IMG/VR virus record: IMGVR_UViG_2681813205_000010
Reading direction: 5' to 3' (one strand)
Origin: a virus
Taxonomy: Duplodnaviria > Heunggongvirae > Uroviricota > Caudoviricetes
Length of the DNA stretch: 4,157 nucleotides
Shown here piece after piece: positions 749 through 4,157 of this stretch. A program made the translations under genes and the position numbers. Position 1 is the stretch's first letter; each line of letters opens with the position of its first letter. The notes beneath the pieces were generated by a model that saw only the letters and a list, made by a program, of their open reading frames with translations, searched no databases and was not told the DNA's origin.

Positions 749-870
749 GCTTATTTTTCGTCAGATTATTTTTCAAAAAATTCCCGTGCATAAAAATTTG
801 GGGAGGCGTTCGGTGCCCGGCGGGGTCGGGTTTGTCCTGAAACCGCCCCCCCCCCCGCCATACAGCCTCA
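749..870. other. Intergenic region, candidate cos / packaging-initiation site (GC-rich cosN-like segment plus AT-rich cosB-like segment)
   Basis: The only sizeable non-coding gap in the operon, between the HNH/small ORF and terS. About 800..860 is very GC-rich (ggggaggcgttcggtgcccggcggggtcgggtttgtcctgaaaccgccccccccccccgcc) with dyad elements: GGCGGGG at 819..825 against CCCCGCC at 853..859, and GGTTT/AAACC around 829..844. The terS-proximal 749..800 is AT-rich with T and A runs. An HNH-cos-terS-terL arrangement is known from HK97-like cos phages. The function is inferred from position and composition only. Confidence 0.3.
846..856. repeat. Homopolymer tract, C11 on the plus strand (G11 on the coding strand)
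   Basis: Counted directly: bases 846..856 are eleven consecutive C residues, flanked by g845 and g857, inside the intergenic candidate cos region. Confidence 0.9.
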
Positions 871-1770: not shown

Positions 1771-2105
1771 TTTTCCGCGCCCTCACGACAAAGAATTTCA
1801 AGGCGTGTCCTGGCGGCATCTGGCAGCGGTTGCCCGATGATATTCAGTACACGCCCCGCCAGCGGCCCCGTATTGACCTTTATCCGACTGGTGGCGTTGA
1901 TGTCCTTCCGGTAGCGTATCCATATCCTTACAGTTCCAGTCGCCAGCTCTGCACCTGATGAAATGGCCTCCTTGCTGCTGATCATGTTCACGCTTGCCCA
2001 GAGTGTGTGACCGTCCAGCCACGTTTCGAGTATTTCACCCGTCATGGCTCTGGTCTGTTTCAGGGTCTGAATCGTTACCCTGTCACGCAGTCGCCCTATG
2101 TTCAT
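1767..2105 (-). CDS. Head closure / head-tail joining protein (SPP1 gp16-like)
   Basis: 112 aa from the internal ATG at 2103..2105: MNIGRLRDRVTIQTLKQTRAMTGEILETW...GTVRIWIRYRKDINATSRIKVNTGPLAGRVLNIIGQP. The N-terminal xxGRLRxRVTIQ and the central RIRYR-type motif are typical of this family. The listed ORF extends to 2147, but that extension overlaps the portal 3' end out of frame; ATG 2105 overlaps the portal stop (ATGA) and has GAGGGAG upstream. Confidence 0.75.
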   Translation of the reverse strand: MNIGRLRDRVTIQTLKQTRAMTGEILETWLDGHTLWASVNMISSKEAISSGAELATGTVRIWIRYRKDINATSRIKVNTGPLAGRVLNIIGQPLPDAARTRLEILCREGAEK

Positions 2106-3313
2106 TCCGGTTTTTCTCCCTCGCTGATTTTTACTTCCTGTTTCCATGCCTGGCTGAACTCATCACCACCATCACGCGGTGACAGTCCTTCACGTTCGCG
2201 GGCTTCGTTCGGACACATAACGCCGGATTTGATGCCGCGCTCATAGGTGGCAAAGCGTTCGCCAGGTGTGGCCCGTAACAGGTCCGCGCTGTCAAACTCC
2301 ACCTGATACCGGATACCAGGTACAGGCGAGGCCACCAGCAGGGCGTTTTTTATCTGCTGCTCAAAGTTCGCCAGCCACGGGCGCATCGTCATGGTGAGAA
2401 ATGCGCGGCTTGCCTCGCTGAAATTGCTGTAGGTGCTGTTGCTGTATTCCTGCAAAAAAATCGGCGAGACGTTGAACATTCTGGCGATGTCTTCAATGGT
2501 GAAGCGACGGGAGGCCAGCCATTCAGCATCCTGATTACTCATGCCCAGCTGCTGATAGCTCATACCCCCTTCAAGGATGGGCGTTTTTCCGGCGTTTCTG
2601 GCCCCTTTGTAGCGTTCCAGTGCGGCTAATGCCTGTTTGCCCTTCACGCCGTCCAGCCATTCGCCTGACGTGATAACCCCTGCCGCCATCATGCCATCAC
2701 GCATCACGCTCGCGCCGTGGCGTTGTTGGGCCAGCCCAAGCCCCAGCGATTCGCGGCAGATGGTTACAGGTGAGCGCCCCATAAAACCGTCATCCGTGGA
2801 GTAACGAAGGTGGAGAACCTCCCACGGTAAATAGTTGCGGGTGTTTCCGGTGTAAGCGTCAGTGATGCAGTAGCGCCAGTTGTGTTCTCCTGTCTGCTCC
2901 ATGTTCACCGACTGCGGCGGGTAAGGATGCAAAGCCGCCGGAAAACCATCACGCCCCCACTGAATCACCGCGTAAGCATTACCGTTTAACAGGCAGTGGC
3001 GGATCATCATTCGCTTAAACTGGTAGGGAGTCTGCCACGCGTTCGGGCGCTCGTTGAGGATGTGATCGACCGGATGAGAATCAAGCCACTCGCGGGCCTC
3101 CTTCCCCTTCTCATTGCGTACCAGGTACAGGTAACACGGCATGGTAGCCACCGCCTCAGAGATGACCGTCACGGCGTTCATGACGGCGGGCAGTGATTCC
3201 GCTGTCCCCGATGATACGTACTCACCCGCCCCCGTGTTCGATGTGCCAGCCAGCGCCATAAACTCATCAAGCGTCATGCTGCGCTGCTCTTTTTTTCTTC
3301 TGAAAGGCCACAT
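2102..3313 (-). CDS. Portal protein, HK97 family
   Basis: 403-aa ORF of the size and composition expected for HK97-type portal proteins, placed between the prohead protease and head-completion genes. A GGGGGTG Shine-Dalgarno-like element lies about 7 nt upstream of ATG 3311..3313. Family assignment is by recognition of the overall sequence, not a search. Confidence 0.85.
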   Translation of the reverse strand: MWPFRRKKEQRSMTLDEFMALAGTSNTGAGEYVSSGTAESLPAVMNAVTVISEAVATMPCYLYLVRNEKGKEAREWLDSHPVDHILNERPNAWQTPYQFKRMMIRHCLLNGNAYAVIQWGRDGFPAALHPYPPQSVNMEQTGEHNWRYCITDAYTGNTRNYLPWEVLHLRYSTDDGFMGRSPVTICRESLGLGLAQQRHGASVMRDGMMAAGVITSGEWLDGVKGKQALAALERYKGARNAGKTPILEGGMSYQQLGMSNQDAEWLASRRFTIEDIARMFNVSPIFLQEYSNSTYSNFSEASRAFLTMTMRPWLANFEQQIKNALLVASPVPGIRYQVEFDSADLLRATPGERFATYERGIKSGVMCPNEAREREGLSPRDGGDEFSQAWKQEVKISEGEKPE

Positions 3314-3314
3314 A

Positions 3315-3887
3315 TCACACCCCCGCTAAATCCGCCCACCAGCGGCGATTATCCGCACGCGGCATTTTTTCGGGGTGCTGCTCGTACAGGGAGCGGCGGG
3401 CCAGCTCCACGCCGGAATCAGGGTAAGCCGGTACGGATGTGACGGTAATTTCGTACAGTTCCGCAACCAGCACGGTGCGCACGCATGGATCTGTTGTGGT
3501 ATCCCATACATCCTTACGGGAACGAAAGCCAAAGCTCATGCCGGATATATCACCACGCTTAACCAGTTCGATAACGTCGCGCCCTGTACTGGTATCCGGT
3601 GGGGTCAGTTCAAAGCGTAACCCTGTTTCATCCTCTTCCAGTTTCAGCGTGCCGGAACGGGTGCGCCCCAGTAACATACTGTGGTCATGCTCATACAGGC
3701 CGCGAACGTCATTACCCGCCGCAAGCCATTCAGTAAACGCCCCCCGCTGGAATTTTTCGTAAAACTCACCCCATAACAGTTCTGAAAGCTTATCCCAGCG
3801 AACAACGTAGCCTGTAAGCGTGTTGCTGCCGCTGGTGGTGATTTCCGATGACCGGATTTCCATACTCTTCATAATTTTTTCACCCAT
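3315..3887 (-). CDS. Prohead maturation protease, HK97 family (peptidase S78)
   Basis: 190-aa ORF with a characteristic prohead protease core: GAFTEWLAAGNDVRGLYEHDHSMLLGRTRSGTLKLEEDETGLRFEL...RGDISGMSFGFRS, which includes candidate catalytic His and Ser contexts. The start is ambiguous between ATG 3887, 3872 and 3863 (MGEKIMKSMEIR); none has a strong Shine-Dalgarno. The stop is 1 nt before the portal start. Confidence 0.85.
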   Translation of the reverse strand: MGEKIMKSMEIRSSEITTSGSNTLTGYVVRWDKLSELLWGEFYEKFQRGAFTEWLAAGNDVRGLYEHDHSMLLGRTRSGTLKLEEDETGLRFELTPPDTSTGRDVIELVKRGDISGMSFGFRSRKDVWDTTTDPCVRTVLVAELYEITVTSVPAYPDSGVELARRSLYEQHPEKMPRADNRRWWADLAGV

Positions 3888-3896
3888 AAAACACTA

Positions 3897-3916
3897 AAGG
3901 GGCTTTTAAGCCCCTT
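3897..3916 (-). terminator. Intrinsic terminator-like hairpin between the upstream gene and the protease gene
   Basis: On the minus-strand RNA: AAGGGGCU-UAAA-AGCCCCUU (8-bp stem, 4-nt loop) followed at once by UAGUGUUUU, then the protease AUG. It sits in the 37-nt gap between the stop at 3927..3929 and the ATG at 3887. The plus-strand version lacks a comparable U tract. Confidence 0.45.
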
Positions 3917-3926
3917 CTGTATGCTG

Positions 3927-4157
3927 TTAATCGTCGTCCTGTGGCAGTTCCAGAATCTTGATCGCGTTCGAATCCACCACGCCACCGCCTAAATATTTCT
4001 GCGTGAAAATTTTGAGGAAGCGCGGCTCTGTGAGCATGTCCGGTCTGGTGCGAACACCTGTTTGGTGAGCAACAATACAGTAACCGCGTTTGCAGTCACC
4101 CAGGGCAATATGGTTAACCGGCATAAACGCCAGATATTTGACCGTGAGGCCCAGCAA
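3927..4157 (-). CDS. C-terminal fragment of an upstream gene (5' end outside the window); possibly the major capsid protein
   Basis: Open frame running off the right edge and ending at TAA 3927..3929 (…GYCIVAHQTGVRTRPDMLTEPRFLKIFTQKYLGGGVVDSNAIKILELPQDDD). The leading M in the ORF track is a window-edge artefact, since the first codon is TTG. It is followed by a terminator-like hairpin, as is common after highly expressed capsid genes. Capsid identity is inferred from position only; I do not recognise the sequence. Confidence 0.45.
   Translation of the reverse strand: MLGLTVKYLAFMPVNHIALGDCKRGYCIVAHQTGVRTRPDMLTEPRFLKIFTQKYLGGGVVDSNAIKILELPQDDD

Follow-up and report, generated by a model that had tools for sequence, protein, structure and literature searches.

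Phage-inducible chromosomal islands of the capsid-forming kind (cf-PICIs) are satellites recognized as islands of 10–18 kb that carry an integrase, a replication module and genes for capsid, protease, portal, connectors, HNH endonuclease (hnh) and both terminase subunits (terS and terL), with no tail or lysis genes. Their packaged DNA forms concatemers through cohesive (cos) ends. In the published cf-PICI EcCIEDL933, mutations in the packaging module abolish transfer of the island, except in a mutant of the hypothetical gene 1792, where transfer is severely reduced; transfer of the helper phage is unaffected in all of these mutants. The cf-PICI papers that we consulted state that the cos ends are cohesive and give neither the sequence of the site nor the positions of its ends. 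Here we analyse a stretch of 4,157 nt, IMG/VR record IMGVR_UViG_2681813205_000010 (the window), in which the non-coding gap at 749–870, upstream of terS, is very probably the cos site of a cf-PICI, of the type found in phages HK97 and SfV.

The TerS of HK97 recognizes 15 bp at +15..+29 (CTAACCCGATTTTTT), with a requirement for G:C at position 21 and for the A/T tract at 24–29 (PMC11331095). HK97 TerS stalls the motor, and TerL, helped by the HNH protein gp74, makes a staggered cut in the DNA, leaving 10-nt 3′ overhangs (PMC11331095, PMC9410871). In phage SfI, comparison of the virion DNA ends, determined by run-off sequencing, with the prophage revealed a 10-nt gap, 5′-TGCCCGCCCC-3′ (PMC3636060).

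The window is the packaging operon of an EcCIEDL933-like cf-PICI of ~15 kb. It is 99.5% identical to Escherichia coli JB2, in which these genes lie in a ~15 kb island bounded by a split tqsA. The JB2 island also encodes an integrase, a small helix-turn-helix regulator, Icd-like genes, a RepA-type helicase, a single-stranded DNA-binding protein (SSB) and PerC; tail and lysis genes are lacking. Its size and content and the gene order of the window agree with the description of cf-PICIs given above, and EcCIEDL933 shares the architecture. A sequence-only reading of the window had raised the possibility of a satellite; the int, alpA-like and rep genes, the run from capsid to terL, the lack of tail genes and the position in tqsA all bear this out. 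Every real gene of the window is encoded on the minus strand (open reading frame (ORF) list, Pfam and PHROG), hereafter the coding strand. The gap, earlier described as the only substantial non-coding stretch of the operon, is the largest in the window, flanked by the terS start codon (746–748 as read on the + strand) and the stop codon (871–873) of a 60-aa ORF, and the genes adjoining it are all intact ORFs. The order HNH, cos, terS anticipated from HK97-like phages is found here too, with the 60-aa ORF between HNH and the site. Segment 700–1100 is present in 489 of 5426 complete E. coli genomes and is chromosomal every time.

Homology to mapped phage cos sites

The TerS proteins of SfV, SfI, SfII, SfIV and ST64B are 36–37% identical to that of the window (SfV, 36%); SfV TerS belongs to the same Pfam family (PF05119), and the SfV HNH gene ends just upstream of the cos/terS region. 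To compare the sites, we aligned 100 columns without gaps, anchored on a 10-mer at the position of the SfI gap, and set the identities against 5000 shuffles. Anchored identities were 0.39–0.49, equalled by at most 4 of 5000 shuffles; for the window against SfV, ST64B and HK97 they were 0.39–0.42, again equalled by at most 4 of 5000.

Across the junction, the window reads GGGGGCGG / GGGGGGGGGGGCGG, 31 nt to ...GGGCAC, CGAACGCCTC, then CCCAAATTTTTATGCACGG / CCCAAATTTTTATGCACGGGAATTTTTTGAAAAATAA. The Klebsiella-type cf-PICI reads GGGGGAGG / GGGGTGGGGGAGG, 31 nt to ...AGGCAC, CACCCGCCCC, then CTCAAATTTTTACGCACGG / CTCAAATTTTTACGCACGGTGATTTTTTTGAAAATAA. In SfV, the upstream GGGGCGGG / GAGGGGAGGGGCGGG is followed by 31 nt to ...CCGGAC, by TGCCCGCCCC and then by ATCGTTTTTTTATACCCGCGAAAAA / ATCGTTTTTTTATACCCGCGAAAAATGAAA; ST64B has TGCCCGCCCC, then CTCGAATTTTTATACCC / CTCGAATTTTTATACCCGCGAAAAATGAAA, with CTCGAATTTTT at the position of the +1..+11 block (numbered so that +1 is the first base of the left end past the 10-mer, window 802).

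The site thus resembles those of SfI, SfV, SfII, SfIV and ST64B in having HNH upstream, terS of family PF05119 downstream, a G-rich box (the G-box), a 31-nt spacer to AC and a C-rich 10-mer followed by a (C/A)TC(G/A)-A/T tract. Block by block, the G-box, TTTCAGGAC, the 10-mer, CCCAAATTTTT and GCACGGGAATTTTTT follow one another with the spacing seen in SfI, SfV and ST64B. The differences lie in the 10-mer itself (TGCCCGCCCC in the SfI/SfV group, CGAACGCCTC in the window), in the downstream GC core and tract (ACCCGCGAAAAA versus GCACGGGAATTTTTT), in an N-terminal extension of ~50 aa that SfV TerS has and the window TerS does not, and in the elements themselves, which are phages of ~38 kb in the SfI/SfV group and a tail-less satellite of 15 kb here. 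Alignment with the cos sites of relatives, a check proposed in the sequence-only reading, therefore yields homology in both sequence and spacing to a mapped site, and supports the placement of cos between HNH and terS.

HK97 shares the layout: its G-run is separated by 32 nt from the 10-nt overhang, after which comes a left end rich in A/T. The order HNH, cos, terS and 10-nt 3′ overhangs (predicted in the window) are common to HK97, HK022, HK106 and HK446. The HK97 TerS site, a GC core and T-tract at +15..+29, has its match at +14..+28 of the window, and cleavage in HK97 is HNH-stimulated. By contrast, the HK97 overhang (CGCCGCCAAA) and left end (GTTTGAATTTAACGC) differ from those of the window, and HK97 TerS has no detectable sequence similarity to the window TerS. 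The distance from G-box to 10-mer is 31–32 nt in the window, SfV, ST64B and HK97, and the same G-box stands 30–32 nt from the overhang in SfV, ST64B, HK97 and AbIPP1. The last of these is a 33-kb Acinetobacter phage (PQ201581.1) that reads, at 265–340, GGGGGAGGGTGGG, 30 nt to GAC, CGCCCCCTAA, AGTACATTTTTACG; its TerS is only 38% identical, its cos layout is alike, and here too a small ORF separates HNH from the site.

Linear ends of related islands

Two linear records of related cf-PICIs, derived from virions or viromes, break within the corresponding gap. The first, IMGVR_UViG_3300022664_000095 (15,518 bp), was found in IMG/VR with motifs from both sides of the site; it encodes terS, terL, integrase, primase, capsid and portal and is a complete Klebsiella-type cf-PICI in excised form. 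Its integrase gene lies mid-contig, so the molecule is an excised, att-joined form opened at the gap and not a prophage cut from the chromosome. The contig ends in ...TTTTCAGGACAAAACCCAAGCCGCAAGGCAC (...AAGGCAC) and starts with CTCAAATTTTTACGCACGGTGATTTTTTTGAAAATAAAAC... (beginning CTCAAATTTTT), with terS from base 61. In all continuous relatives that we collected, exactly 10 nt, C[AG]CC[CT]GCCCC, separate GCAAGGCAC from the CTCAAATTTTT downstream; the linear molecule is therefore without exactly 10 nt, as end-polishing of 3′ overhangs would produce. Its ends match the borders of the SfI gap to the base.

The second record, LR881103.1 (16,548 bp), was found through distant BLAST matches among deposited phage genomes. 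It is named "Escherichia phage vB_KppS-Ant", has an induced prophage as its source and is a cf-PICI by gene content. This linear sequence ends in ...GGGGTGGGGGAGGTTTTCAGGAC and begins ACGAAAAGG... 22 nt before terS; the homologous 10-mer is 23 nt away from one end and 36 nt away from the other, and 69 nt of the integrated relatives are missing. An assembly derived from particles thus breaks inside this gap. A 765-aa ORF after terL in this record (2036–4333) has been labelled a tail tape measure protein, a strange product for a satellite that lacks a tail; it is probably an accessory gene. A third record, Klebsiella phage P12620-1, was set aside as uninformative, having a truncated terS, no cos upstream and a chimeric appearance.

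Transferred to the window, these ends place the predicted nicks at 803/802 on the coding strand and 812/813 on the + strand, within the interval 800–860 in which termini had been expected from the sequence-only reading. Loss rather than duplication of the 10 nt, together with the HK97 precedent, points to 3′ polarity for the 10-nt overhang. Invariant columns cluster at both predicted nicks (814A, 813C and 812C; 803C, 802C and 800C), with the invariant AC (814–813) that ends the spacer directly 5′ of the predicted + strand nick. The cohesive end would sit on the border between the GC-rich and AT-rich halves of the gap.

Several points weigh against this assignment. None of 69 IMG/VR contigs with the E. 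coli-type left-end motif starts at the site, and none of 24 bulk-metagenome contigs with the Klebsiella-type left end starts at +1. The evidence for precise ends comes from one assembled contig, and a drop in coverage at the C-run could in principle break an assembly nearby. For the window element and its E. coli-type relatives, we infer the ends from those of other cf-PICIs, and the predicted overhang polarity draws on the missing 10 nt and on HK97. A 1.6-kb low-coverage contig from a phage preparation, OR845787.1, reads through the site, as expected for annealed ends or concatemers, and gives no support. Finally, 3 of the 10 bases in the window 10-mer depart from the consensus of the family, and the G-box has two private changes at nearly invariant columns, so that this copy could cut less well.

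These last differences raise the question of whether the window holds a cos site by descent that is now impaired, in a decaying island, or whether its G-run contains sequencing errors. Between JB2 and the window, 700–1100 shows only two differences, T to G at 852 and at 843 on the coding strand. Both are assigned to the 13-nt G-box, at columns that are 98–99% invariant in the family; they create a run of 11 G and could be real mutations or G-run sequencing errors. Natural loss of cos also has a precedent in Shigella flexneri SFBU1023, by a deletion from cosN through the terS start. Impairment nevertheless seems improbable to us: the neighbouring genes are all intact ORFs, the C at 801 and the 10-mer CGAACGCCTC are common to other E. 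coli islands, and the effect of changes in a G-box of putative function is not predictable. In SFBU1023 (CP182556.1, 1171–1215 of locus L302), the deletion joins the spacer CCCCGCC (window 825–819) to the CCCCGCC of terS codons 7–9, with loss of the 10-mer, the AT-rich half and the beginning of terS; the locus resembles a decaying cf-PICI that lost its cos through a deletion at microhomology.

We also considered whether the gap holds only expression signals for terS and terL, with the packaging site elsewhere or packaging by the headful (pac) mechanism. The terS start directly follows the AT-rich half, the direct repeat GAAAAATAA within it could be regulatory, and conservation by itself does not identify function. 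Against this, a promoter and terminator scan of 600–1100 found no match on the coding strand, and an Rfam search of both strands with E up to 1 found none. The two related linear records break in the gap and nowhere else, the presence of an HNH gene accompanies cos-type packaging, and the layout equals that of a mapped phage cos down to the spacing; headful packaging is contradicted by the unique ends of the relatives and by the cohesive-end concatemers of cf-PICI DNA. An expression-only gap is accordingly very improbable.

Conserved blocks, the GC-rich dyad and neighbouring genes

For some loci in our first conservation table, retrieval had relied on DNA patterns drawn from the conserved blocks, which biased that table in part. 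We therefore repeated it on loci retrieved through the TerS protein, with one genome per species, which gave 29 gap-free regions from Enterobacterales, Aeromonas and Pasteurellaceae. Mean pairwise identity was highest in +1..+11 (0.96), followed by the last 5 nt of the spacer (0.82), the 10-mer (0.81), +12..+29 (0.80), the G-box (0.77) and the TTTTCAGGAC box (0.72); it dropped to 0.45 in the variable spacer and to 0.37–0.43 in the flanks. In the partly pattern-biased set, columns 834–836, 838 and 840–842 were 99–100% conserved. The spacing of the blocks is fixed across the 29 relatives. The intergenic sequence, whose lack of conservation the sequence-only reading had named as grounds for rejecting a cos site, is thus kept in its blocks. 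In several Pasteurellaceae, the same motif set stands farther upstream of terS with palindrome-rich inserts between, which indicates that the conserved unit is the cos motif and not the terS leader. Pasteurellaceae bacterium Macca (LVZB01) has at least 9 loci with this TerS type, and at one of them (L327) a palindrome-rich insert stands between terS and the motif set, which lies ~270 nt upstream.

Table 1. Features of the window, in window coordinates
Feature	Position	Strand	Sequence or description	Basis
terL, N-terminal 136 codons	1–408	−	Runs off the window	PF03354; JB2 annotation
terS, 118 aa	392–748	−	Terminase_4 / P27 family	PF05119, E = 1.3e-23; phrog_83
terS ATG	748	−		ORF list
Non-coding gap, 122 nt	749–870	−	Whole predicted cos region	ORF list; Prokaryotic Genome Annotation Pipeline (PGAP) calls for the JB2 island; block conservation in 29 relatives
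Direct repeat, two copies 15 nt apart	774–766 and 759–751	−	GAAAAATAA; terS translation start region next	Repeat search
Candidate TerS site, cosB-like, +14..+28	775–789	−	GCACGGGAATTTTTT; GC core then T-tract	
Left end, +1..+11	792–802	−	CCCAAATTTTT; consensus CTCAAATTTTT; most conserved block	
Predicted cosN cohesive end, 10 nt	803–812	−	CGAACGCCTC on the coding strand, GAGGCGTTCG on the + strand	Homology to SfI gap; contig ends
Spacer, 21 nt	813–833	−	AAACCCGACCCCGCCGGGCAC; length fixed, sequence variable	
Inverted repeat	819–859, arms 819–830 / 848–859		12 nt, 83% complementary	Repeat search
Conserved box	834–843	−	GTTTCAGGAC; consensus TTTTCAGGAC; loop region of the dyad	
G-box	844–856	−	GGGGGGGGGGGCG; family consensus GGGGTGGGGGAGG; 3′ end 31 nt upstream of the 10-mer; putative cosQ-like or HNH/terminase recognition element	
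60-aa ORF between HNH and cos	871–1053	−	Function not assigned	phrog_3173, E = 7.5e-37; PGAP-annotated
HNH endonuclease, 146 aa	1037–1477	−		PF01844; phrog_144, E = 1.1e-44
gp6-like connector	1477–1770	−		ORF and domain annotation
Head-closure protein	1767–2147	−		ORF and domain annotation
Portal	2102–3313	−		ORF and domain annotation
HK97-type prohead protease	3315–3887	−		ORF and domain annotation
Terminator-like hairpin	3896–3917	−	GAAGGGGCTTAAAAGCCCCTTT then AGTGTTTTAT; capsid/protease intergenic	1 found versus 0.1 expected
Major capsid, C-terminal part	3927–4157	−		ORF and domain annotation

The gap is in two parts, with a GC fraction of 0.75–0.78 over 800–859 and 0.25–0.28 over 740–799. 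In its GC-rich part, the sequence-only reading had seen a dyad as the core of the site, and the motifs that it quoted are present (GGCGGGG at 819–825 with CCCCGCC at 853–859, and GGTTT at 829–833 with AAACC at 840–844). Cleavage at the dyad itself, recognized either in hairpin or cruciform form or by a protein as a symmetric site, would draw on the inverted repeat listed in Table 1, on its 5′ arm overlapping the conserved G-box and on a short TTT/AAA symmetry around CAGGAC, the only pairing that recurs in the 29 relatives. The folding energy of the dyad as single-stranded DNA is −12 kcal/mol; dinucleotide shuffles yield −11.65 ± 2.16 (z = −0.16), and 75 of the 200 do as well or better. The variable spacer contains its 3′ arm, and pairing of the long G/C stem occurs in 14–52% of the relatives, the same range as register-shifted controls. 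In addition, the dyad of the window is partly created by the private changes at 852 and 843, which improve it and which JB2 does not have, and the contig ends and the SfI gap put the cut 7–17 nt 3′ of it. We consider cleavage at the dyad very improbable and retain the 10-mer outside it as the predicted cohesive end; on the z-score and the absence of covariation, we also reject a hairpin as a functional structure.

The AT-rich part had been likened to a cosB or IHF-binding region. The IHF consensus WATCAANNNNTTR has no match with at most 1 mismatch across the whole window, so the second of these likenesses is unsupported. At +1, Pasteurellaceae relatives have AATCAAATTTTTA and the window has CCCCAAATTTTTA. 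That the AT-rich half acts as cosB is plausible by analogy only, from comparison with the HK97 TerS site: the GC core is followed by a tract of T6 within +14..+28 of the window and of T7 at +23..+29 in relatives, and these features make +14..+28 the candidate for TerS binding. The cos site of lambda is tripartite, with an upstream element ~30 bp from the nick site, the nick site itself and a downstream TerS-binding region, and the window resembles it in this layout. It differs in that lambda has 12-nt 5′ overhangs, needs no HNH protein, relies on a TerS of another family and contains IHF sites within its cosB, whereas the window has no IHF consensus; a lambda-type cosB with an IHF site was rejected for want of a consensus match between the cosN and TerS sites. 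Next to the terS start, the GAAAAATAA repeats may be protein-binding elements or part of the translation start region. In the region upstream of terS, GAAAATAA is kept in most relatives, and at the repeat region relatives have GAAAATAAAAC...GGAAAAC.

Four further observations concern the genes around the site. The C terminus of the 60-aa ORF, ...ECFRNR, is kept in Enterobacterales relatives. In an E. coli variant of 89% identity, many automated calls lengthen TerS to 165 aa with a start upstream, reading through the cos region; the conserved TerS protein has 118 aa. For the head-closure ORF, a start at 2147 is possible, giving 126 aa and a 46-nt overlap with the end of the portal gene, and in JB2 PGAP calls a 112-aa version that starts at window 2105. 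The terminator-like hairpin in the capsid–protease interval may act as an attenuator and set how much capsid is expressed relative to the genes downstream.

Predicted packaging and independence from helper phages

From the homology and the contig ends, we propose the following course of packaging. After excision and replication, the satellite's own TerS would recognize concatemeric satellite DNA, probably by binding the GC core and T-tract at +14..+28, beside the invariant CCCAAATTTTT. TerL and HNH would nick twice, 10 nt apart, at the positions predicted above, leaving 10-nt 3′ cohesive ends CGAACGCCTC. From the terS end, packaging would pass in turn over terL, the joined att site, int, rep, the capsid genes and HNH, and stop at the next cos, so that the G-box would lie ~31 nt from the last-packaged end. 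In cf-PICIs, SfV/ST64B, HK97 and AbIPP1 alike, the G-box (consensus GGGGTGGGGGAGG) keeps a fixed place 30–32 nt upstream of the cohesive end, and it could be a second, uncharacterised recognition element of HNH-dependent cos sites. We put this forward tentatively, as a possibility that we rate as somewhat unlikely; its role may be that of a cosQ-like termination signal or of an HNH docking site. If true, the G-box, the 10-mer and the TerS site together would set the packaging orthogonality of cf-PICIs and helpers.

In other satellites, namely P4, the cos-type Staphylococcus aureus pathogenicity islands (such as SaPIbov5) and the Rpp-type E. coli PICIs, the satellite cos likewise decides which DNA enters capsids. 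These elements copy the helper cos or retarget the helper TerS, whereas the window element has its own TerS, TerL and HNH and a cos distinct from that of the helper. The right end of HK97 recurs in the helpers HK106 (95% identity) and HK446 (94% identity), which carry HK97-type cos, and the 10-mer, putative TerS site and left end of that type differ from those of the window. Packaging of EcCIEDL933 and that of HK106 are genetically independent, and the cos differences from HK106 and HK446 would account for the reported exclusion of each other by satellite and helper packaging.

Cos-type packaging of cf-PICIs with a site near hnh–terS is implied by published work, and the result is one that specialists would expect from HK97-like phages. 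What is added here is a base-level prediction of the site, drawn from homology and from where one metagenomic contig starts and ends, and backed approximately by one deposited record. Novelty may lie only in the G-box, with its constant distance across several HNH-dependent cos systems. The site matters because cf-PICIs make their own capsids, package only themselves and move between bacterial species and genera. A cos sequence of this kind would explain, at the sequence level, why the satellite and helper terminases disregard each other's DNA, and an exact cos would be the minimal cis element for making plasmids or other cargo transducible by cf-PICI capsids. The compact motif (G-box, 31 nt, C-rich 10-mer and CTCAAATTTTT) also provides a means of spotting packaged cf-PICI genomes, and their true ends, in viromes.

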